Notes: generated by a model from the letters alone, not told the origin. Shown: positions 12,376-64,000, numbered from the stretch's first letter. The stretch: 64,000 bases of DNA from Uloborus diversus (GCF_026930045.1 NC_072740.1:29428384-29492383); one strand, 5' to 3'. A program made the numbers and translations.

Positions 12376-12453
12376 ACCCTGCTGGCGCAGGACGCAGTCA
12401 TTCAATGAGAATAGTTTCATTCAGTGCTTAGTGTATTCTGAATTAAGTTTGCA

Positions 12454-14935
12454 ATGGACAAATTTGTTACCAAAAAGGCACGTTTGGAAGTTACTGCAGA
12501 AGAAGACCATACTGCAAGTCAACCACCTGCAATTATTGTGCCTGCTTCATCGTCATCGGGCGAGAACGGTTCACAGCGGAAAACCTGGACAATCCGCTAA
12601 GGGAAGATCATTTCAGAAGTCTTGGTTGAACAAATATACATGGCTAGAATATGAAGCTTCAACTGAAAAAGTTTTTTGCAAAACCTGCAAAGAGGCAGAT
12701 GCTAAAATGCTATTACAATTTTCTTCAAAAAAAGAAGAAGCCTTTATTTCCATAGGATTTTCTAACTGGAAAAGGACTTTGCAAAAATTCTGTTTTCATG
12801 AAAATACGTTTATGCACAAAGGAGTTCTGAACCTGAATTCTATTAATAACCGAAGCGTGGCCTCCCAATTAAATGAACTGTTAGATAGTGAAATTAAGAA
12901 AAGCCGTTTAGCTCTGGAGACAATTTTTACTACCATGCAATTTCTATGCCGACAAGGACTAGCATTCAGAGGGCACGAAGATATACACTCAAATTTTTTT
13001 TCAATTGTTAGAACTCCAAAAGAATGACGTATCCGAGTTAAAAGTTTGGTTAGGGCGTTCGGGGTACAAGTGGATGTTCCACGATATTCAAAACGAGATC
13101 ATTAATATTCTAGGAAAGTCTGTGTTGAGAAAGGTATTGGCTTTGATCAAGAAGACTGAACATTTTTCTATTACGGTTGACGAAACAAGTAATTCTTCAA
13201 TTCACGAACAAGTGTCATTTTGTATTCGTACTGTCGATGATTCCTTAATCATCAACGAAGACTTCATTGGCTTATACGAGACCCCCAACACTGAATCGCA
13301 AACTCTGTTTAGTATTTTAAAAGACTTTTTGCTTGTCTTGATTTATCAATGGATAACATAAGAGGACAGTGCTATGATGGTGTTGCGAATGTGAGAGGTA
13401 AGTTCATAGGACTAAAAAAGTTGGTTTTGGATGCACAACCAAAGGCACTTTACGTGCATTGCACTGCTCACAGTTTAAACTTGGCAGTTGTAGACAGTTT
13501 CCGCCATCTTACGTCTATGAGGGATATTATGGCTTTAGCCAAGGACTTAATAAAAACCATAAGGGGGATATAACCCAAAAAGATGGGACTTTTCAGAAGC
13601 ATACGCTGTGAGAATGCCAACGACCAAGCTGGTCTACGACCCCTTTGCCCGACTCGATGGACGATGCGAGCTTCTAGTATCTTGAGAATATTGAAATGCT
13701 TTGATGAACTTTTACAGTTTTTTGAATGCACAACCAAAGGCACTTTACGTGCATTGCACTGCTCACAGTTTAAACTTGGCAGTTGTAGACAGTTTCCGCC
13801 ATCTTACGTCTATGAGGGATATTATGGCTTTAGCCAAGGACTTAATAAAAACCATAAGGGGGATATAACCCAAAAAGATGGGACTTTTCAGAAGCATACG
13901 CTGTGAGAATGCCAACGACCAAGCTGGTCTACGACCCCTTTGCCCGACTCGATGGACGATGCGAGCTTCTAGTATCTTGAGAATATTGAAATGCTTTGAT
14001 GAACTTTTACAGTTTTTTGAAACATTTTCTGCTAAAGATGAAACAGAGGCAGATTACAAATGTACAGGGTACCTTGAGTCAATGTTACAATTCAAGACTT
14101 ATTTCCTTTTACGTCTTTATTGCCATGCAATGAACTCAGTTGAGGATGTCAATGAAAAAATTCAATGCCCTCATCTAAGTGTTGCTAGTCTAGAAAAAAT
14201 ATATGAGGGCCTGATTTGTGTATGGAATGGTAGGCGTGATAGTTTTGAACACTTTTGGGAATTGTGTTTAAAAGAAAAACTTCGCAAGTTGATGATACTT
14301 CGCTTCCTCGGAGTCGACGTATGCCAAAGAAATATGAAAACGACGATGCCAGCTCACCGCACATTTTCGAAGCCCCAAAAGAGTTCTACAAAGCAATTTA
14401 CATTGAAGTTTGTGAAACGGTGCAATCTTGCATTACTGAGCAGTTTGCATCAACTGGACTTACACAGGTCATTGCAGTTGAACAAGAGTGCTTGCTTTTA
14501 GTAAACAGAGCTGAAACAAATTTTGAAAAATCAACTGAGTTTTTCAAAAATGACCTAGACATTGAGAGACTGTGGTTACACTTGAATATGTTAGCCGATA
14601 TTACTAGTAAAAAGCAACTAGTCTTAAAAGACATGGGTGATGTAAGAAAGTACATTACACAACAGCCTGCAGTTGGAGAAATGTTATGTGAAATAGTAAA
14701 GTGCATTAAGCTTCTTCAAGTAGTTCCAATCTCGACAGCAACAGCAGAATGGTCATTTAGCACCCTAAAACGTCTGAAGTCATATCTTCGATCAACAATG
14801 GGGCAGAAGCGATTGAACAACTTGGCTGTTCTTCATGCCCACCAAGATGTTTTGGATGAATTGGATATCCGACCACTCATCAACGACTTCATATTCAGTA
14901 ATCCAGTCAGACAATCAACATTTGCCCCTTTCTAA
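12454..14935 (+). pseudogene. hAT-superfamily transposase (TTF-type zinc finger + DUF4371-like + hAT C-terminal dimerisation domain; ZMYM1/Charlie-Buster-like), frameshifted
   Basis: Four consecutive six-frame ORFs (12431-13027, 13005-13361, 13349-13573 and 13878-14935) carry the pieces in order. (1) The first has a zinc-finger segment WLNKYTWLEYEASTEKVFCKTCKE ... FSNWKR ... H. (2) The second has a DUF4371-like block ELQKNDVSELKVWLGRSGYKWMFHDIQNEIINILGKSVLRKVLALIKKTEHFSITVDETSNSSIHEQVSFCIRTVD. (3) The fourth carries the C-terminal motif ATAEWSFSTLKRLKSYLRSTMGQKRLNNLAVLHAHQD, typical of hAT dimerisation domains. The pieces sit in different frames, so there are at least three frameshifts. The initiator ATG lies at 12454. 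Confidence 0.7.
13432..14021 (+). repeat. Internal tandem duplication, 2 x 295 bp, inside the transposase gene
   Basis: The segment TGCACAACCAAAGGCACTTTACGTGCATTGCACTGCTCAC ... CAGTTTTTTGAA occurs twice head to tail (13432-13726 and 13727-14021). Two ORFs therefore start with the identical peptide MGLFRSIRCENANDQAGLRPLCPTRWTMRASSILRILKCFDELLQFFE. Confidence 0.85.
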
Positions 14936-39010: not shown

Positions 39011-41360
39011 ATAATGCTGCAAAAATCCTTGATTATCTTCTGCAGACAGTTAAAAAAAAAATGTGAAAATATAATCAGAGGGAAATTTTTAAATTCTGCC
39101 ATTACTGAAAAAGCCTCAAAGCAAAAACAAGAATTTTATTTGTTCTCACTCAAGCAAAAAGTGGCAAGATATGTTTATTCAGGTATTTTTTCTCAATAGT
39201 TTCTTCATGCTAATTTTAGCACAGTTCCTGCTGATGATAAATTTTCAATTTAAAATTGAGTTTTACTTAAAAATGATCGTATTTTTTTCTGGTTAATTTA
39301 GGTGCTTGGAGTTTTCAAATCCATAGAAAATTTTTTTCTAAAGGCATATTTTTCATGGGCTATCCAATGGAACTAAAATTGAGATGATACGATATTTATT
39401 TCAGGTAAAAACAACCATTTTATGCCAAAAAAAGCTAAAATTAAAAATTGAAAGATTCAGTGGGTTTTTATTGATGAAAGATATTCTCAGTGAGGGCTGA
39501 AGAGAGGCCATGTCAGCCTAGCCAAAACTAAGGACCCAGCCCTTTTGAGGATCTGGCTAGGAATTGAAGTAGAATAAATTATATAAGTTTTATGACAGGA
39601 GGGTGACCTAGCAACCAAACTGATGAGAGACTTACCTTGGTTCTCAACTGCCTTGCCCTCTGTTCTATTCTGCTCTCCTGGTAATGTTTATGCAAAATTT
39701 CATGATGATCAGTTGAGTAGTTAGGGTGTAAAACGTTTCAAACACACAAACTCACTTTCACATTTATAATATCAGTAAGGACTCTGTGTACAATTCAACT
39801 CAGTAAAAATAAATTTTCTTGGAACACATTTTTTTTTTCTTATGCTTTTTTTTTCATTTTTATTTTTCATATTACCTATTCTTAAAAATATTAGCAATTT
39901 CCCAACTATGTTCAATTCTTTAAGTTTATATTACTCTGTTGGAGCATTAAATGGTGTTATAAAATTATTCTTATTAGTTTAAGTTGATTTTAAATGTTTT
40001 GTGTTTTAAAGGTATGTAACAGATACTTCCTCTTTATTACTTGGTATTTTTAATGATTCATTTACACAACCATTGTTGTTATAATTATTGACTTTGCTTA
40101 GCCAGTTCCAAAACTTTAGATATAGATTACTACTTACAGGTTATGTATTCACTTTTCTTATGAAAGTATTTGTGTTTAAAATGCATACAAGAAGTTCAAT
40201 GTTTGTGGATCGATGAATCAATATTATGGATGTTTTAATTTTGAACATCAATGTTTTTGACATATGGATATTTTTATCGATGTCGAGCCACTAGTGTCTT
40301 GAGCAATAGCTAGTCAGAAGACACGTGATCCAATTTTTTAAATTTATTGAAATTGAAGACGTTTATGAGCTTAACATCTACACAAATTTCACAATCTGGG
40401 ATCATTGTTTTAAGGTTTTCAAATCTGAAAATCAATTGCAACGTTTAATGAAAACTGCTGCTACTTTCAATGGCATGAACTGTTTCAAGAGGGTTTTTGA
40501 TCTTCATTGAAGATCAGTAAATTGACTGGTGCCCTCCTAGCTGTGATTAAAGCTTTTTCTTTGGTTCTCTTTTTTTTTTTTTTGTTTGCAATTTATTTAG
40601 AATTTTAATTTTTAATGAGGCTGTTTCTTCCTAAAATTTAAGTTAATGTATGCCTGGTTAGCAAATTAGTACCATTTGAACTTAATTAAACTGTTTCTCC
40701 TTTAAATAAAGCAACCTCGTTTTGACTCTTAAAATATTTCCCTTAAACATTCAAGTATTAAAGAGATTTTTTAAAAAAATAAATATGACCTTGCTAACAT
40801 TAGTTGGTGATTTAAATTTTTGTCTAAATTTAGGGGTATTGAATAGACAGTATTTTGGCAAAGAGCAAATTGTTTACTAGTCTTTTATGAAACTTGGAAT
40901 TTATGATTGCATATAAATGAAAATTACTGAATTTGAGGAAGTTAATGTTTTGCTTTCAGCTGTTTTGAATAATTAATTTAACCAGGTAGGTACAATGTTT
41001 AGCCTAGATGTATTTTCAAATCAAAAGTCAAGTATTATACTTCATAACCAGGAATTTCTCTTGAACGTTCACAATGTAAGTTGCTAAATATAGGTGCAGT
41101 GTCAAAGACCAACAATTGGGAGGGTTTGTTTTTCTGACTGCTTTTGAGGAAAGATTATTTTTGGTGCAAATACTGAGTCCTATCACTCTTAAAATATTAA
41201 TGAAGATTATTTAAAATGTATATGATGTCTGTTGTCCATGTTACATTATTTCCATGTTAAAGTATGAAAAAAATAATGAATATAAAAAAATAGTTGTTGT
41301 TAAATTATTTTCCTTGCATAACTTTATTTCTTTTTAAAACACCTAATTTTTTTCATTTAG

Positions 41361-46237: not shown

Positions 46238-46372
46238 ATTCAACTTTTGAATATTACAAGCTTGGCATTAATGTACTCTGCCAATCTTAAAAGTCCATGT
46301 GACGAATATAGGTTGTTGTTGAAAAAATGTGCTGATGATGTTCGACAATTAGATCCAGAGTTTATTTTGAAG
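46238..46372 (+). CDS. TROVE-domain exon G (IQLLNITSLALMYSANLKSPCDEYRLLLKKCADDVRQLDPEFILK)
   Basis: It has acceptor tttttgcag| and donor ttgaag|gtacc. It is 135 nt in phase 0. The ..DEYRLLL.KCA.D..QLDPEFILK motif matches my recollection of the segment just upstream of the TEP1 TROVE core. Confidence 0.6.
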
Positions 46373-46793: not shown

Positions 46794-46955
46794 GTTGCAC
46801 TTTATGCACGTCAAGAACTTCATATTAGATCTGTTGCAAATTTCCTGCTTTCTTATGCAGCCTTCTATGAAAGTACTCGTATATTCTTGGAGAAGTATTT
46901 TAAAACTAGTATAGTTTTGCCATCAGATTGGATTGATGTTGGAGAGCATTACCAA
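46794..46955 (+). CDS. TROVE-domain exon H (VALYARQELHIRSVANFLLSYAAFYESTRIFLEKYFKTSIVLPSDWIDVGEHYQ)
   Basis: The acceptor is tttacag|. The 162 nt open frame carries the characteristic TROVE block LYARQ.L.IR..AN..L..AAF ... LPSDWI.V.E.YQ, as recalled from vertebrate TEP1. The donor is a weak gtacta. Confidence 0.6.
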
Positions 46956-53166: not shown

Positions 53167-53979
53167 CCCACCATGTTAGAATGCCTCCACTTAGTGTGAC
53201 CTCTGCTTAGACATTTGGTACAAACTATCTGTAGGCATCTGCTAATAAATTGTGGTATCCATGGCAGACAAGTTGCAACTATTTTGAATACAAAATAGTA
53301 TAGCTACACATTACTGAGTAGGTGGTCATAATGTTTTTGGCTCTTCAGTGTACTCTTTATTCATATATTTATTCTAAAATATACTCAAAGTTACCAATCT
53401 TGAATAAAAGTTAATTGTATTTTTAAATGTTACAATCAAGTTAACCCACTGGTTGATTGGAATGAGAACTTAATTTAAAGTGATGGGAGCATTCCCTTTA
53501 TTCTAAATACATTTTCCCAGTGTTTTTTATATAAACTATTACTACAACATGCGTTTGGTTTTATTGATCCCTCTTTTCTCTCATTTCTGCAAAAACTATT
53601 TCAACAGCTCACGATTTTATGTTCCCTAGGGAAGATCTTTTTTTTGTTTTTTGAAAGGAATAATGTATGGTGCAGAATAGGTTAAGGGAGGTAGATCCTG
53701 TGCAATTAATCTTTTGCATGTCTGTGTCAGGATTGCAATGACTTAAGATAATATTAAGTGTTCAAATGTTGTTTACATTTTTTTTTCAAGTAAGTTTCAA
53801 TAAGATACTGCATTTTTTTCTTCTAGGAAAACTAGAATATAAGATTTTTATTTGAATGGGAAGAAAAACTAATTTGTGGTAGAAAAGGGCTAACTAAAAG
53901 GGGAAGCAAAGAGTTGTTTGAGATAATCATTCTCAGTGCATTAATGTTTTATGCACTATTTCACAAGGTTTAGTTTAAG

Positions 53980-54725
53980 GACCATTGAAGGGTTGCCAAC
54001 TGCTCCGAATTTTGCGGAGGTGCTCTATAAAAATAGCAAAACTCCACAGCTCTGTGAAGAAGTTATTTTGCTCCGCATTTCCTGGTCGAGTGCATAAACA
54101 CCCTTTCACCTCCCTTCTGCTGTGATCTTCTATTCAGGATTTTTTCTGACACACAGTCTTTCTAGGATAGAAAAATGTTTGGAACTTCATGCCGTGGGTG
54201 GGTAGGGGAAAAGGCTTAAGAGTGATGGTGCAAGCGTTAGCATTTATGCATATCAAAATCAGTTTGCATCCGCTTCTGTAACACTCGCTCATTTTTGTCT
54301 ACTATACCATCTTCCACTTAAACCTTCACAACCTTTTATAGACCTTTATAGACCTTCCTTAGATTTTACTTTTTGCTGAAGACTTGAATGCTCATCATTG
54401 CCATGTCCCATTTTCGGACCGAGCGTTTTCAAGCGATTGCGATCCGTGCAAGTACTCCTTCACCTCTCTTCTGCTGATATGAGATGATTAATTAAAGATG
54501 CTTTTACTCAATGCGTGACATAGTGTTTACAGTTGTTTTATTTTTTTTATAATTATTTTTATAACTAGTGCTTAAAATGATTATCAAAGCTTAAAAACAA
54601 TTTCAAATAAGTGGTGTTTTTCAATTGACTTTATAAAAAATACAGAGCTGCTCTGCAAAATTTCAAAATGCTCCTCTAAATCACAACAGGTGCTCCTGAA
54701 ATAGTTTCTAAAAGGTTGGCAATCC
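53980..54725. mobile_element. About 745 bp MITE with GGGTTGCCAAC... inverted termini and an internal duplicated block (CACCTC(C/T)CTTCTGCTG)
   Basis: GAAGGGTTGCCAACTGCTCCGAATTTTGCGGAGGTGCTC at 53980 is matched by GGAGCACCTG...TTTCTAAAAGGTTGGCAATCCTGG at about 54690-54725. The bounds are approximate. Confidence 0.4.
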
Positions 54726-54879
54726 TGGGTAAGATGACAAAAAACGCTTTCTGGAATAAGCAGAAATGCTGCTATTTATCAGGATCTATTAATAGTAAAG
54801 ATAGTAAAGCAATAAGTCATCGATCTGAGTGTCTTAATATGTCAGAACTTAAAATTTCTTTAACAGTGCAGCCTTGCAA

Positions 54880-55500
54880 GTAGCAAAACAAGCAGAATGT
54901 TGGATTTAGCAAACTTCATTTGGAGTATGCTGTTCAGTTTTATCCTGAAAAGATATTATTTATTGGAAATTGTTCAGAGGAGGGCTACTAGGTTTGTAAA
55001 TAAGCTCTTTGATTTAGATTATGAAACTAGACTTAAAATGCCAAATCTGAACAGTCATGAGCAAAAGTGAATACGTAGGGACATGATCCAGTCATTTGAA
55101 TGTATTCAAATGGCAGATGCTGACAGAAAAAAACTTCTGTAAAGATGACAGAGCCAACAATCACTGTTCAGAAGGAAGTGGCTCTTAGTAGAGTGAGACT
55201 CCTTAATGGGAAGGAGTCAAACTTTGGCCTTGACTGATTGCAGCCTCGCCTCTATAATTAAGGCTTTGCTCTGAACATTTCCAGCAACTATGCACCCAGG
55301 TTAATTGCTAGCTACTAACCACAGGACGTTTGGACCCACTAACTTTACTAGAACCTACACCCCATGTACAGGATGGGTATTTGACAGTGTCAGGGTCTGA
55401 ACTCAGAACCGCCAGACCCTGAGCCATTCAGAGGTCCAATCAGAACATTCAGAGCTCAACAACCATATTCCCTATCAACTAGGCTGCCTACAGTGGAACT
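54880..55500 (+). mobile_element. 5'-truncated CR1/L2-like LINE fragment (ORF2 C-terminus + 3'UTR), older copy of the family at 60.6 kb
   Basis: The translation NKQNVGFSKLHLEYAVQFYPEKILFIGNCSEEGY..LEIVQRRATRFVNKLFDLDYETRLKMPNLNSHEQK*IRRDMIQSFECIQMADADRKKLL.. matches, collinearly, the intact ORF2 sequence ASNKANKMLGF..PHLEYAVQFWSPYLKKDIFVLERVQRRVTKLVRGLSDLDYDTRLNRLNMYSLEQRRVRGDMIQLLKFI. Stops and frameshifts are present. The 3'UTR shows a stem-loop CAGGGTCTGAACTCAGAACCGCCAGACCCTG. Confidence 0.6.
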
Positions 55501-57949: not shown

Positions 57950-59250
57950 ACATGAGTACCTTAGTATGATGTGTGATTACTATTGACACTAATGCACATT
58001 TTGCATCTGTTTTTCCATACTTCCCACTAAACTATTGAGGAGTGCTTGGAGGATATTTTCCTACTCCTTTCTCAAGGCGAATTTGAGTTCTTATACTGTT
58101 CTGGGAGGGAGGGTTTTTGTGTAACACATCTGCCAAGAGCATCTCAGGCATGTTCAATTGGATTTAAGTCAGGAGAGTGAGCAGGCCACTGCATATGAAG
58201 AATGTTTTCACTTTTCAGTGTGTCTGATACTTTAATGCTCCTGTGTGATCATGCATTGTCTTCCATAGAGAGAAAGTCTGGACCTACAGCCCCTCTAAAA
58301 AGACGAACATGATACAGTATAACTTCTCTGCAATACCTTTGCAACATAACGCTCCCTTGTTCAAAAATGTGAAGCAGTGTTCTGCCTTTGTGCATGATGC
58401 CTGCCCACACCTCACGCCTGGGCTGTACCAATCACGTTCACTAACAAATTTTTGTGCATAACGTGTTCCACGCTCGCTCTACAGTAGTTGGTGACCAGAA
58501 TTACTTGTCACACTGAAACGAGATTTCTTGGAGAACATCACTCTAGACCAATTTTGACGATCCCAACCAACATGTTTCTTACAACAGCGTAATCTCTCTC
58601 GACCAGGGCTTGGTTGAAGTGGGTTACAATGTACGGCTTCCATGCATACAAACCAAAATTGTTTAATTGCTGTGAGATGGTTCTTACAGAAACATGCATA
58701 CCGGTAGCGGTAACAAGATTTTCAACTATCTGTCCTGGAGTGAAATTTCTCTTCATTTTTGCCACAAGGGCTACATAACCATCCTCTGAAGGTGTGGTGT
58801 TCCTACCATGACCCCTGGCATGCTTTCGCGAAGCGATTTCCTCCTCAGCGGCCTTCTTTAATCGCAAGATGACACTTTCTGATACACCCATTGAAGCGGC
58901 TAAAGAGCTGGAAGCTTTGATCAGCTTCCAGCTGTCCAACTGTTCGTCCACGATCCTAGGTATTCAAATGATGTCTTGCGGACATTTTACTCTTAAATAT
59001 TTCCAGAACCAAACAGAATTTCAGAGAAAAGACTATTTCAACATCCAGCACTATTTTTGTTAAGCACCAAACAGCATGAATTTTCGTACCAATCTTGAAC
59101 TTGTATGCACTGTCTTTTATACAGATAACGAGTCTTGATCTACGACACCATCTGAACTTGAATTTATTTCCATTGGCCAGCTGTCTGAGGCACAAATTTG
59201 TATAAATCACTTGTTACTTAGCAATTGTCAAGCAGTGTATTTTTAATAAT
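57950..59250 (-). mobile_element. Tc1-like element, transposase pseudogene
   Basis: The transposase is read in three pieces on the minus strand. (1) ORF 58538-58951 is an N-terminal HTH/paired-like region (..GRNTTPSEDGYVALVAKMKRNFTPGQIVENL..VSVRTISQQLNNFGLYAWKP..). (2) A frameshifted continuation follows: W..VMFSKKSRFSVTSNSG.. then ..WAGIMHKGRTLLHIFEQGSVMLQRYCREVILYHVRLFRGAVGPDFLSMEDNA (the DDE core). (3) Finally comes ..MQWPAHSPDLNPIEHA*DAL.. The TIRs are not resolved. Confidence 0.6.
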
Positions 59251-60651
59251 GAAACATAATAATGTAAATGCAGCTTCAACATTTTTTGTGTTTTACTGAA
59301 CTATTTTCACAATTATCACTCTTGCATTTTACTCATTTACACAATATCACTCTTGCATTATTAAAGAAAATTTTCAATAGGGTACGTTGCCATGTATTGT
59401 AAAGGATAAGGAATACATATACTATTTCAGTCCTTCCAGTTCTTTTCAGTCCATTAAACTTTTTTCTTCTCTTTCATACATATGGTTTATAATGTATCAC
59501 TGAAAAAGGAACTTTTACGTTACTAATTCAAATTGTTATCAATTTATTTTCAAATGTCATTCATCATTTTTATGTGTCATACATATACAGGGTGGCGACA
59601 GATCAGGAAAATCAGGGAGATCAGGGAAAAGTCAGGGAACTTTATTAATCAGGGAAAAGTCAGGGAAATATCAGGGAGTTTTGAAAAAATAACAAAAAAT
59701 CAGGGAAAATTTATTTTATGAAGAAATTTTTTTTTTTTTTGCTTTACAAAATTAAGTACTCTAATTCCCTGCGCATTTTCCGCCAATCTGTTCAAAAAAA
59801 AAAGGTAAAATTAATGAGGTGCGATTATACACTGCCGCATATTTGTGCATCTTTTTTCCTCAACGTCAAAGTATTGAATCTTACTTATTAAACCACAGGA
59901 TGAACTTCCTAAGATTGCTTCTGTGTCTGTTAGGTTGTTTATTTTAGAAAGCTTGAAATTTCCTATTACGCTTTCATTGCTACGTAAAATAAACAACCAT
60001 ACAGGCAAAGAGGAAGCCTTCATTAACGCCTTAGCTCCTTTGCCTTTATTCCATTGTCTCAAAGTAATTAGCGTACTGTAATCACGATTTCAAGAAGAAT
60101 CTTTGGTTCTTGAATTAATATTATAAAAGCGTAAAAGCTATTACTTCTTCGCGTTTTTAATTTAATTGCTAAAATTGAACTTTCAATTAAAAAAACTTGT
60201 GTTTTTTTTTTGCCGTTATACTATTTGTTGTTGCCGCAGATTATAAAGGTTTTCTTTTCTTCAGACTTAAGTGATTCTTTAATTTTATAACCAAGTTGTA
60301 TTCTTTTATATATTTTGGAATTAACTAATTTTTTTTTCTTTTTTTTTTCTTGCATTTCAAAGTTTTTTTTTACAAAAGCAATCTAAGATTTTTTTTCGTT
60401 ACATACTGAAATCATTTGAAATAGAGTTAACTTGTGTACTTAAGTAAAAATCTTTATTTTTTTTATTGTTAAAATGCTGTATTCATTCATTAAAACCTAT
60501 GTTCTTGATTAGAGAAAAGCTCCCTATGAATGGATGTCAAATGGTTTCATCTGTTTTGCATAAATATGTCAATTAGTTATACAAATACAAATATACAAAT
60601 ACAAATGTGACGACCAGCAACAGGCTCTGGGCCCAGCTAGGCTGGTCCTAG

Positions 60652-63507
60652 TCAATTAATTAGTCCCCAATGAAGATCAATGGCCCTCTTAAAGCTATCC
60701 ACTCCCTTGCTCATTACCGCCTCTTCCGGTAAGCTATTCCAAGTGCCCACGACCCTGCTAAAGTAGTAGTTTTTCCTGATTTCCAAGTTAGCCTGAGATT
60801 TAAATAGCTTAAAACAATGACCCCTTGTCCTGCTTTCCCCACAAAAATTTAATCCATTTACATCTTTCATTTTGATAAATTTAAGTAACTGAATCATGTC
60901 CCCTCTGACTCTCCTTTGCTCCAGGCTGTACATGTTAAGCCTATTCAGTCTGGTATCATAATCTAAATCTGAGAGTCCCCTTACTAATTTAGTTACCCTT
61001 CTTTGAACCCTTTCCAATACAAAAATATCTTTCTTCAGATAAGGCGACCAAAACTGAACAGCATACTCCAAATGAGGTCTTACTAAACTCCTATATAAAG
61101 GCAGAAGAACTTTCTTAGATTTGTTTGAAATAGATCTATTGATGAACCCAAGCATTTTGTTGGCTTTGTTACTAGCAATACTGCACTGTTGACTAAACTT
61201 GAAGTCCTGACTTATAAAGACACCCAGATCCATAACATTTTCTGCCTGATTTATGACTGAACCCTGTAAACGATATCTCATACGCTTATTTCCATGACCT
61301 AAGTGTAGCACTTGACATTTCCCTACATTAACTGCCATACCCCATTTATCTGCCCACTTAGTAATATGATCTAAATCCTCTTGCAGCTGTTTTACTTGTT
61401 CTTCATTTTCGACAATCCCCATAACTTTTACATCGTCAGCAAAACAATTCATGCTTCCAGAAATATTTTCATTGATGTCATTCATAAATATAATAAACAA
61501 AAGAGGCCCTAAAACTGATCCCTGAGGAACCCCACTTAAAACATCACTCCAATTAGAATGATTTCCTCTCACAACTACTCTTTGCTTCCTACCAGTAAGC
61601 CAATTTCTAACCCAAAGTAAAGTTTTTCCTCCTATTCCAATGTCAGCTAACTTGCTGAGAAGAGCAACATGCGGTACCTTGTCAAAAGCTTTTTGAAAAT
61701 CAATATAAACAACATCCACACATTTTTTGTTATCTAAAGCTGAGGTAACCTTGTCGTAGAAATGCAATAAATTAGTAGTACAGGATTTACCTTTCCTGAA
61801 ACCATACTGCAAACTAGTCAACAGACTATTAGTCTCTAAGAACATCATGATCTTAATTTTGATCAAAGTTTCGAAAATCTTACAAATCACCGAAGTCAAA
61901 CTTACAGGTCTATAATTCCCAGCAATACCTTTAGACCCCTTCTTGAAGAGTGGCGTTATGTTAGCCAGCTTCCAGTCCTCTGGCACCATCCCCGAGTTAT
62001 AAGAAGCATTGAAAATATTCAAAATAACATCCACTAATTCCTCTGCACATTCAACTAAAATTTTTGGATAAATATTATCTGGTCCCGGAGCTTTAGTTGC
62101 TTTAATCTTTTTCAAATGAAATAAAACCTCCTCCCTGGAAAATACCAAATCCTCAAGCTGTATAATAGCTTGTGTCTTGTTAGTGTCAACTGTTGAGATA
62201 CAGTTATCGTTAAACACACTGGAAAAAAAGTTATTTAGAACATTTGCAATATCCCTATCGTTTTGGATTAAATTTCCATACTCATCAACCAAAGGCCCAA
62301 TTTGACTGTTTCGAGCTTTCCCGGAATTAGCGTAAGCAAAAAACCTCTTAGGGTTCCCATCAATGTCATCTGCCAGCCTTTGCTCCAATTCCCTTTTCTG
62401 AATCCGTACCAAATACTTAAAATTTCGCCTTGCCTTACCATACTGGAGCCTCTCCGCACTCTGACCAGTTTCTTTAAACTTACGAAAAGTGGCTTGCTTA
62501 TAATTAAGAGCTTCTTTAGTCTCCCTGGAGAACCACATGGGCCAAATTTTGGTACTAACACCTTTTCTCCTAAATGGAACATAGTCCCCAACGGTTTTAG
62601 CAAGTTTATCCTTAAATTCCATCCACTGCTGATCTACTTCGCTACTTTCCAACCCTGATGAAAAAACCTCTTTCAAGCTCTGCCTAAGTGCAACAAAATC
62701 AGTGTTTCTGAAATTGGGCACAAACCTAAAATTATCATCTTTGCACACTTCAAATTTAACCCGGAACCTAATGCTGTTATGATCACTATCTCCAATATGC
62801 TCCCCTACACTCAACCCCTGAACAAAACTACCTATGTCACAAAAAACTAGATCCAAAATCGCCTCCTCTCGAGTTCCCTGAGTTACAACTTGATCTAAGA
62901 AACAGTCACCAATTACTTTTAAAAATTCCTCTTCTTTGCCATTACCAGGGTAAAAATTATTCCAATCAATACCCGGAAAATTGAAATCCCCCATTATGAT
63001 AACGGATCCCTTACTGGACATGTCACTAATAATACGGTACATCTGTTCATCTTGTCCGTGGTTTGAATTAGGTGGCCTATAAATGTTTCCAAAGCGTAGC
63101 TTTTTGTCCTTACTGCTGATCAACTCCAGCCAAACCATATCAATATCAGTAGGCTTATCATTTATGACCAATTCATTGCAAATAAAATTGTCTCTAACAT
63201 AAAATAAAATCCCACCACCTCTTTTACCTACTCTATCCTGTCTGAACAAATTATACCCAGCAATATGTAATAACTCTGCATCAGATTCGGTAGCCCATGT
63301 CTCTGTAATTCCAATAACATCCAACTTCTCATCCATAACTATGCTTTTCAATTCATCCATCTTGTTCCTAATACTGCGAGCATTGGTATAGAAAACTTTA
63401 AGCATGCCTAAGTTGCTTTTATTTAACACCCTGAAATTTCCTAAATTACAATTGTTAACATTACTACTCTTGTTCGTCACTTTATTTCCATTTCTAGCAA
63501 TACCCAA
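60652..63507 (-). CDS. LINE ORF2: apurinic-like endonuclease + reverse transcriptase + CR1-type C-terminal domain (951 aa, uninterrupted)
   Basis: The EEP endonuclease motifs are ITETW..GYNLFRQDR..GGGILFYVRD..IIMGDFNFP. The RT motifs are YRPVSLTSVICKIFE..QYGFRKGKSCTTNL..YIDFQKAFDKVPH..SGVPQGSVLGPLLF..FADDVKVMG. The CR1-clade C-terminal signature is CGESRTRGHCFKLFK..RKNYYFSRVVGTWNSLP. There are no internal stops. Confidence 0.85.
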   Translation of the reverse strand: MGIARNGNKVTNKSSNVNNCNLGNFRVLNKSNLGMLKVFYTNARSIRNKMDELKSIVMDEKLDVIGITETWATESDAELLHIAGYNLFRQDRVGKRGGGILFYVRDNFICNELVINDKPTDIDMVWLELISSKDKKLRFGNIYRPPNSNHGQDEQMYRIISDMSSKGSVIIMGDFNFPGIDWNNFYPGNGKEEEFLKVIGDCFLDQVVTQGTREEAILDLVFCDIGSFVQGLSVGEHIGDSDHNSIRFRVKFEVCKDDNFRFVPNFRNTDFVALRQSLKEVFSSGLESSEVDQQWMEFKDKLAKTVGDYVPFRRKGVSTKIWPMWFSRETKEALNYKQATFRKFKETGQSAERLQYGKARRNFKYLVRIQKRELEQRLADDIDGNPKRFFAYANSGKARNSQIGPLVDEYGNLIQNDRDIANVLNNFFSSVFNDNCISTVDTNKTQAIIQLEDLVFSREEVLFHLKKIKATKAPGPDNIYPKILVECAEELVDVILNIFNASYNSGMVPEDWKLANITPLFKKGSKGIAGNYRPVSLTSVICKIFETLIKIKIMMFLETNSLLTSLQYGFRKGKSCTTNLLHFYDKVTSALDNKKCVDVVYIDFQKAFDKVPHVALLSKLADIGIGGKTLLWVRNWLTGRKQRVVVRGNHSNWSDVLSGVPQGSVLGPLLFIIFMNDINENISGSMNCFADDVKVMGIVENEEQVKQLQEDLDHITKWADKWGMAVNVGKCQVLHLGHGNKRMRYRLQGSVINQAENVMDLGVFISQDFKFSQQCSIASNKANKMLGFINRSISNKSKKVLLPLYRSLVRPHLEYAVQFWSPYLKKDIFVLERVQRRVTKLVRGLSDLDYDTRLNRLNMYSLEQRRVRGDMIQLLKFIKMKDVNGLNFCGESRTRGHCFKLFKSQANLEIRKNYYFSRVVGTWNSLPEEAVMSKGVDSFKRAIDLHWGLIN

Positions 63508-63560
63508 AAAAATTTCATTCTCTCGATACCTGATGCTTGAACCATGCCCCCCATTCCAAC

Positions 63561-63989
63561 TTAGTTTTTTGACTCCGAAGCCCTTAAAATTAATCCACTA
63601 ACCATTTTGACCCCTGTAGAGCTCAGATGCAGGCCATCCCTAGCAATCCAATCCTGTTTACAATGACTCCATACATCAATGAACCTGATACTGCGCTTTT
63701 CGCAAATTGACTTCAGTAGCAAGTTCATACACCTCGCACGTTGATTTAGCCAGCTCCTATGCACTCCATACCTGGGAAGCAAACCAACCACTTGGACATT
63801 CGTCGAAAAGCTGGTTGCTTTATCCAACAGGGATTCCCATTCCCTAGAAAACTCCTCATTTTTACTGTGACCTACATCATTTGTTCCCACCCACAAAGTA
63901 ACCATGTCCTCCTTATGCAATACTCCCTTCTTTTCCGCAACCATATTAACGTCTTTTACCCGAGCCCCTGGTAAACAACACCTAGCCAC
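63561..63989 (-). CDS. LINE ORF1 with SGNH/GDSL esterase-like domain (142 aa)
   Basis: The ..VTLWVGTNDVGHS.. block resembles SGNH hydrolase block III (GxND). An esterase ORF1 is a known feature of CR1/L2-type elements. The ORF ends 53 bp upstream of the ORF2 ATG. Confidence 0.6.
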   Translation of the reverse strand: MARCCLPGARVKDVNMVAEKKGVLHKEDMVTLWVGTNDVGHSKNEEFSREWESLLDKATSFSTNVQVVGLLPRYGVHRSWLNQRARCMNLLLKSICEKRSIRFIDVWSHCKQDWIARDGLHLSSTGVKMVSGLILRASESKN

Positions 63990-64000
63990 CTTACGCTTTA

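Follow-up and report, generated by a model that had tools for sequence, protein, structure and literature searches.

How does a long interspersed nuclear element (LINE) with two open reading frames (ORFs) on one RNA obtain translation of ORF2? Outside L1 and SART1, the answer is still called unclear. The question is raised by a LINE copy on the minus strand at the end of a 64,000-nt stretch of the Uloborus diversus genome (GCF_026930045.1 NC_072740.1:29428384-29492383). This whole stretch is the window of our analysis, all element coordinates are counted over it, and base 64000 is its edge. Taken together, the evidence makes it reasonably probable that the copy is a young CR1-group LINE with an esterase-type ORF1, probably lying antisense in an intron of a TROVE-domain gene, and that its ORF2 is expressed as an ORF1-ORF2 fusion by -1 frameshifting. 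A young intronic copy of such a LINE is ordinary and a matter of routine annotation. What gives the locus wider interest is a frameshift signature conserved where ORF1 meets ORF2, a testable combination of slippery heptamer, stop codon and G-run that is kept across esterase-type CR1 elements with only ~40% ORF2 identity.

The part of ORF1 that lies in the window (63561-63998, minus strand) consists of the C-terminal 145 codons of an SGNH/GDSL esterase and a TAA stop (63563-63561), with the frame open to the window edge. ORF2 (60652-63507, minus strand) is uninterrupted, counting 951 aa when listed from a TTG and 917 aa from the first ATG at 63405, and ends in a TGA stop at 60654-60652. It lies in the -1 frame relative to ORF1 and is open from 63597, so that the two frames overlap by 37 nt. 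The open stretch upstream of the first ATG (63406-63597, minus strand) covers the last 11 sense codons of ORF1 and its stop and then continues as a stop-free, poorly conserved linker of ~53 codons to the endonuclease. An earlier note on this DNA had described a 53-bp spacer between the two ORFs; the 53 bp only separate the ORF1 stop from the earliest TTG in the ORF2 frame, and the overlap leaves no such spacer. The 3' end of ORF1 reads ...TCA AAA AAC TAA, which contains a canonical slippery heptamer for -1 frameshifting, A_AAA_AAC (63564-63570, minus strand), in the ORF1 frame and directly against the ORF1 stop. The junction thus has an X_XXY_YYZ heptamer that is in phase with ORF1 and falls where ORF1 and the -1 ORF overlap.

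Is this heptamer peculiar to one copy? The junction was surveyed in 12 esterase-type elements, namely, the window copy, L001 to L005, L007, L010, L011, L075, L088, and L089. An in-frame slippery heptamer is found 0 to 3 nt before the ORF1 stop in all 12, and four distinct valid heptamers are represented; in these ORF1 frames, in-frame heptamers have a background rate of 0.7% per codon. L001 to L004, with 52 to 57% ORF2 identity to the window copy, share A_AAA_AAC followed by the stop. L005 (TARA; 42% ORF2 identity) has A_AAT_TTT one codon before the stop, and L010 (39%) has T_TTT_TTA, also one codon before the stop. The turtle element L007 (Natator), L011, L075, L088, and L089, all at ~40% ORF2 identity, have T_TTA_AAC followed by TAG. 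The C-terminal residues of ORF1 vary among these elements (KN, LN, NFC, and FLV), though the slippery pattern stays. Since the encoded residues differ, the pattern does not reflect protein conservation, and it is kept beyond coding constraint. Eleven of the 12 elements place ORF2 in the -1 frame and keep that frame open across the heptamer; the exception, L011, is out of frame and is presumably a decayed copy. Judged from these sequences, -1 frameshift fusion with ORF1 is the best-supported route for the expression of ORF2.

The alternative is that ORF2 is translated separately after the ORF1 stop, by reinitiation or by an unconventional route like those of human L1 and silkworm SART1, which in the window copy would start at the AUG at 63405. 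This copy does have an in-frame AUG just upstream of the endonuclease. SART1 uses a documented termination-reinitiation mechanism, the mechanism in other two-ORF LINEs being called unclear (PMC3708506), and retrotransposition of ZfL2-1 can dispense with ORF1p (PMC3905857). Separate translation, however, has no need for a stop-free stretch before the endonuclease, yet in 9 of the 10 elements checked, the 36 to 82 codons that lead from the heptamer to the endonuclease match contain no stop and stay in frame. The probability of such an open -1 frame in shuffled sequences is 0.005 for the window copy and 0.001 to 0.12 for its relatives. The open -1 linker is Met-free in 7 of the 12 elements (the window copy up to Met35, L001, L002, L003, L005, L088, and L089). 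L011 and L075 are Met-free over the stretch checked, with the endonuclease match of L011 out of frame and that of L075 doubtful. Separate translation also has to contend with seven elements that have an open -1 linker and no AUG before the catalytic Asn, and it leaves unexplained why a heptamer of any of four interchangeable types stands in the right frame at the ORF1 stop of every element surveyed. We therefore regard it as unlikely and favor the frameshift fusion.

A second conserved feature lies downstream of the heptamer. In the window copy, a GGGGGG run (63547-63552, minus strand) starts 12 nt after the heptamer, and a run of 5 to 7 G residues starting 11 to 13 nt after the heptamer is present in 8 of the 12 elements (the window copy, L001, L002, L004, L007, L011, L088, and L089), compared with ~1.7% expected. 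The run always includes a GGG (Gly) codon in the -1 frame. From its sequence, it could either stimulate frameshifting or reflect a need to encode Gly-Gly in the linker. Strong downstream hairpins were found in L010 (z = -2.5) and L075 (z = -2.1), both of which are devoid of the G-run.

Extending this pattern to the whole group, we propose tentatively that esterase-type CR1 LINEs, from those of turtles to the one in this genome, may have no true spacer and may make their endonuclease-RT (reverse transcriptase) only as a G-run-aided frameshift fusion, while sister lineages whose ORFs are divided by an in-frame UGA-C may use readthrough. Two further arrangements were seen in CR1-like elements that lack an esterase ORF1. 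Three of them, L016 (1854-1860), L017 (634-640), and L022 (1372-1378), have ORF2 in the -1 frame and a canonical heptamer, G_GGA_AAC or A_AAA_AAC, within the ORF1/ORF2 overlap, so the sequences suggest that the frameshift arrangement may extend beyond esterase-type elements. Others, L009 (983-985), L012 (1646-1648), L015 (1930-1932), L071 (1379-1381), and also L018 and L072, have ORF1 and ORF2 in the same frame with one stop codon between them, in most cases TGA with C as the next base; in L071, the stop is TGA-CTAG, a known leaky context. The sequence of these junctions suggests stop codon readthrough as another route to an ORF1-ORF2 fusion in these non-esterase CR1-like elements.

What kind of element carries the junction? 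ORF2 begins with an apurinic-type (EEP) endonuclease, which is followed by an RT. The endonuclease (~63405-62770, minus strand; Pfam Exo_endo_phos, E = 1e-11) retains the motifs YTNARS, ITETW, GDFN, and SDH, and the RT (~61941-61246, minus strand; Pfam RVT_1, E = 1e-36) retains YIDFQKAFD, PQGSVLGP, FADD, and GKCQVLH. The conserved CR1-type C-terminal region (~61230-60655, minus strand) contains RPHLEYAVQFW. In an alignment with 60 homologues, ORF2 departs from the consensus at only 9 of 183 columns conserved at ≥90%, and all of these substitutions are conservative. ORF2 is thus unbroken and its catalytic residues are kept, and the Pfam domains and the motif list bear out the earlier note, which had described an uninterrupted ORF2 with all catalytic motifs.

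The SGNH-esterase-like block that the same note saw in ORF1 also holds. The ORF1 part matches Pfam Lipase_GDSL_2 (E = 9e-13, profile positions 59 to 176 of 178), and its best match in PDB is 4c1b, the esterase of ZfL2-1 ORF1p (E = 6e-12). Esterase blocks II (CLPGA), III (GTND), and V (DGLH) are seen in the window. Block I (GDS, with the catalytic Ser) lies beyond base 64000; in the alignment, it reads GDSM in the full-length ORF1s of L001 and L002, in which a Cys-rich N terminus and a linker precede an esterase that starts at this motif. By alignment with relatives, the missing portion of ORF1 amounts to ~125 to 140 codons, and the 5' untranslated region (UTR) likewise lies beyond base 64000. 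Residues W36 (~63893-63891, minus strand) and V72 (~63785-63783, minus strand) of the ORF1 part align with H191 and S228 of ZfL2-1, which are reported to be transposon specific and needed for catalysis in the ZfL2-1 esterase (PMC3905857). The equivalent pair is W and V/I/L in the window element and its closest relatives. L005, L010, and L075 also lack the H/S pair, having N, L, or M together with V, and both H and S are retained in the turtle element, L011, L088, and L089. On this alignment, the change from H/S to W/V is a correlated replacement.

The 3' UTR between the ORF2 stop and the tail is ~45 nt long and contains a hairpin (60612-60647, minus strand) with a GACCAGC/GCTGGTC stem around an inner stem of the GGGC/GCCU type. 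The hairpin is kept at the same place in L001 and L002, where 2 stem pairs are changed on both sides, from G-C to A-U and from C-G to U-A. A (TTTGTA)n microsatellite tail of ~4 copies, one of them imperfect (60578-60605, minus strand), follows without poly(A) and marks the 3' end of the element, as the earlier note had it. The TTTGTA hexamer is common to L001 and L002; L003 and L004, which are also among the closest relatives, carry different 3' UTRs. The 3' end of CR1 elements consists of a hairpin and a microsatellite and is thought to be recognized by the CR1 RT (PMC4316615). The window copy shows the same CR1-group combination (PMC4316615), that is, a hairpin followed by a short tandem-repeat tail and no poly(A), and by analogy, the hairpin is presumed to be the recognition site of the element's own RT. 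An Rfam scan of the whole window returned no match.

Elements of the CR1 and L2 groups with an esterase ORF1 have been known since 2003 and are widespread. Esterase-type ORF1s occur in the CR1, L2, RTEX, and Penelope clades, in chordates, cnidarians, and sponges (PMC3905857), and in vertebrate CR1 and L2 lineages, the esterase type is the sole ORF1 type found (PMC13343379); according to one survey, esterase-type ORF1s are restricted to vertebrate subgroups (PMC4120745). The closest proteins recorded for the window copy, with 52 to 57% ORF2 identity, come from short Logan, ENA, and JGI contigs, and these relatives likewise carry an esterase ORF1 ahead of ORF2. Their contigs show a 5' UTR of 480 to 790 nt or more and an ORF1 of 264 to 286 aa and then ORF2. 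The nearest named proteins are the CR1 ORF2s of turtles and frogs, with ~40% identity over 99% of the length. By its domain content and 3' end, the element is a CR1-group LINE, a known type, and the blocks seen in the window make an esterase-type ORF1 probable. Domain content, nearest named relatives, and the shared layout agree in this with the earlier assignment to a CR1/L2-type LINE with an esterase ORF1.

How would such an element work? ORF1 and ORF2 would be transcribed as one RNA, with ORF1p as the main translation product. On A_AAA_AAC, at the final two sense codons of ORF1, some ribosomes would shift backward by one nucleotide and continue through the linker of ~53 codons into the endonuclease-RT, yielding an ORF1-ORF2 fusion at a Gag-Pol-like ratio. 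The RT would then recognize its own RNA by the 3' hairpin and hexamer tail and copy it into nicked target DNA by target-primed reverse transcription, as in other "stringent" LINEs of the CR1/L2 type. If this is true, the annotation of ORF2 changes, with no start codon to seek, and the fusion would physically link the esterase domain to the RT. No description of -1 frameshifting in CR1-type or other non-long terminal repeat elements was found in searchable full text, which does not reach the older chicken and turtle CR1 papers, and we claim no priority.

Several observations weigh against this picture. Past the heptamer, minimum free energy folding of the window copy detects no significant hairpin or pseudoknot (z = -1.15), and the G-run lies 10 to 12 nt from the heptamer, whereas the usual spacer is 5 to 9 nt. 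The AUG at 63405 precedes the catalytic Asn by six codons, which makes reinitiation possible in this copy. The 12 elements surveyed are not fully independent samples. ORF1p of ZfL2-1 is reported to enhance retrotransposition without being essential for it (PMC3905857); hence, a fusion is not strictly required in every esterase-type element. The folding energy of the 3' hairpin, -18.6 kcal/mol, is unexceptional (z = -1.2). Finally, the placement of the element in the CR1 rather than the L2 superfamily is suggested by the nearest named hits in a comparison set free of labeled L2, Rex1, or Daphne ORF2 references. ORF1 cannot separate CR1 from L2, since the identity of its esterase to everything outside the immediate clade is only 24 to 31%.

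Is the copy still active? The two frames provide 1,062 open codons (917 in ORF2 and 145 in ORF1), without stops or frameshifts. In a model in which ~4% of random substitutions in ORF2 create a stop and indels are assumed to occur at 5 to 15% of the substitution rate, this bounds the neutral divergence at ≤0.6 to 1.1% (P = 0.05), a value computed from the open codons and not measured. With ~1,060 codons open and the cis-signals inside the window kept, the copy is, judged from its sequence, a recent insertion. Youth is necessary but not sufficient for activity. The earlier note had called the copy apparently intact and likely still active, neither of which is shown, as the 5' part of ORF1 and the 5' UTR with any promoter lie outside the window and no sibling above 57% identity is recorded. 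"Intact" in particular is not an observation, because the window cuts the element inside ORF1. Near-identical siblings were absent from the collections searched, which did not include the host genome, and the best protein match there was 57%. Exact-sequence lookups with the 951-aa and 917-aa forms of ORF2 gave no match, and neither did a metagenome scan with a single ORF2 protein; an alignment-based metagenome scan returned 80 loci, all with ≤53% identity, which served the junction survey and not a count of copies.

It is accordingly quite possible that the copy is 5' truncated and was dead on arrival, that is, young and never autonomous, with the open ORF2 reflecting recency only and the earlier label "master-like" being wrong. 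CR1 copies are usually severely 5' truncated on insertion (PMC4316615), the window holds just 3.43 kb of an element whose relatives measure at least 4.3 to 4.9 kb, and the lack of recorded siblings in the collections searched points in the same direction. Set against this, the copy spans all of ORF2 and 145 codons of ORF1, which would place it among the longest possible truncation products, and no 5' junction is seen inside the window. Domestication, in which host selection rather than recency would keep the frames open in a LINE-derived gene, is very improbable. The unbroken ORFs are the sole point in its favor, whereas the slippery junction, the 3' hairpin, and the microsatellite tail are all retained, the element lies antisense in an AT-rich stretch full of transposable elements beside decayed copies of the same lineage, and no orthologue-like match in the collections searched exceeds 57% identity. 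Because every LINE cis-element is retained, we reject domestication and continue to regard the copy as a recent LINE insertion.

The surroundings of the element hold older relatives of it. A decayed, 5'-truncated relative on the plus strand (53645-55124) consists of an RT part (53645-53987, frameshifted) and a C-terminal part (54816-55124), with ~830 nt unmatched between them, and shares 37 to 45% aa identity (tblastn) and 67 to 73% nucleotide identity (blastn) with the element. It shows no detectable similarity past 55136. The diverged opposite-strand copy of the earlier note is thus present, at these coordinates and not at 54880-55500. Another decayed fragment on the plus strand (40295-40543) covers the final ~90 ORF2 codons and the beginning of the 3' UTR, with 36% aa identity (tblastn) and 75% nucleotide identity over 60 nt (blastn). 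Among 61 CR1 proteins, the best match of the decayed fragments is the window LINE, in keeping with the earlier description as the same family, a label that is loose at a nucleotide identity of just ~70%. From these sequences, it is reasonable to suppose that a related lineage was active in this genome at an older time. A perfect 9-bp inverted repeat, CAGGGTCTG...CAGACCCTG, stands at ~55391-55429 on the plus strand, ~270 nt 3' of the decayed CR1 fragment, and may be the 3' hairpin of the old element or part of another repeat.

Two host exons that encode the beginning of a TROVE domain (Ro60/TEP1 type) lie on the plus strand, at 46262-46372 and 46795-46955, with GT/AG splice sites and a Pfam match of E = 5e-17 over profile positions 44 to 119 of 442. 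A word-indexed protein search with these exons gave no match. It is plausible from this gene structure that the LINE sits antisense in an intron that follows these exons, the earlier note having placed it inside a gene intron; the exons further on would lie outside the window. No further TROVE exon appears on the plus strand up to 60.3 kb: Pfam found none in concatenated plus-strand ORFs from ~47.0 to 53.7 kb and from 56 to 60.3 kb. Outside the element, the G+C content is 32.6%. Two other transposons were noticed in the window. A degenerate hAT-type transposon (12431-14935, plus strand) consists of frameshifted DUF4371 and hAT dimerization pieces with an internal duplicated block, and its best named relatives are from the spider Oedothorax gibbosus (70%) and a leafhopper (86%, partial). 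A Tc1/mariner-like transposase remnant (58249-58951, minus strand) lies ~1.6 kb from the 3' end of the LINE; its match to HTH_Tnp_Tc3_2 (E = 6.5e-6, 26.8 bits) is under Pfam's cutoff of 31.5 bits.

How does the element compare with known systems? Among the closest is CR1 of amniotes and amphibians, known from chicken and turtles and represented in this comparison by L007 of Natator depressus and the Xenopus and turtle proteins P0012 and P0040. The window element has the same ORF2 composition of endonuclease, RT, and conserved C-terminal region (~40% identity over 99% of the length) and the same esterase type of ORF1. The junction, too, resembles that of L007: both elements have ORF2 placed in the -1 frame, a slippery site by the ORF1 stop, and beyond it a G-run (11 nt later in the turtle element). 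The 3' end, a hairpin and a microsatellite without poly(A), is also of the CR1 kind (PMC4316615). The two differ in the heptamer (A_AAA_AAC here, T_TTA_AAC in CR1), in the tail (a TTTGTA hexamer here, an octamer in amniotes), in the 3' UTR of just ~45 nt, in the W/V that replaces the pair of the H191/S228 type in the esterase, and in the AT-rich genome in which the element resides.

ZfL2-1, a retrotransposition-competent zebrafish element of the L2 superfamily with solved structures for the esterase and coiled coil of its ORF1p (4c1b; PMC3905857), shares the SGNH esterase ORF1 at ~31% identity, with the catalytic Asn, Asp, and His blocks kept. Both are LINEs of the "stringent" kind, ending in a 3' stem-loop and short tandem repeats. 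Unlike ZfL2-1, the clade of the window element has W and V/I/L in place of the transposon-specific H191 and S228, and its full-length members L001 and L002 have a Cys-rich N terminus before the linker. With SART1 and L1, the element shares two ORFs on one LINE RNA and a short distance from the ORF1 stop to the ORF2 coding region (PMC3708506). In contrast to the UAAUG termination-reinitiation or the unconventional reinitiation of SART1 and L1, there is no stop-start overlap here and no conserved ORF2 AUG, and the inter-ORF stretch stays open in the ORF2 frame.

Programmed -1 frameshifting serves the expression of Gag-Pol in retroviruses and also operates in coronaviruses and long terminal repeat retroelements. 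The heptamers of the esterase-type LINEs include ones identical to known sites of that kind (A_AAA_AAC, U_UUA_AAC, and U_UUU_UUA); here, too, the polymerase ORF comes second and is offset to the -1 frame, and the prediction is that the upstream protein would be the major product and the fusion a minor one. The differences are that the heptamer abuts the 0-frame stop codon, that the feature conserved downstream of it is a G-run at +11 to +13, with no pseudoknot that can be demonstrated, and that an esterase takes the place of a capsid protein upstream. A review of frameshifting names no CR1-type LINEs (PMC5009743). If the reading of the junction as a frameshift site is true, LINEs of the CR1 type would set the ratio of ORF1 to ORF2 products in a retrovirus-like way, and a Gag-Pol-like strategy would be in use in a LINE clade.

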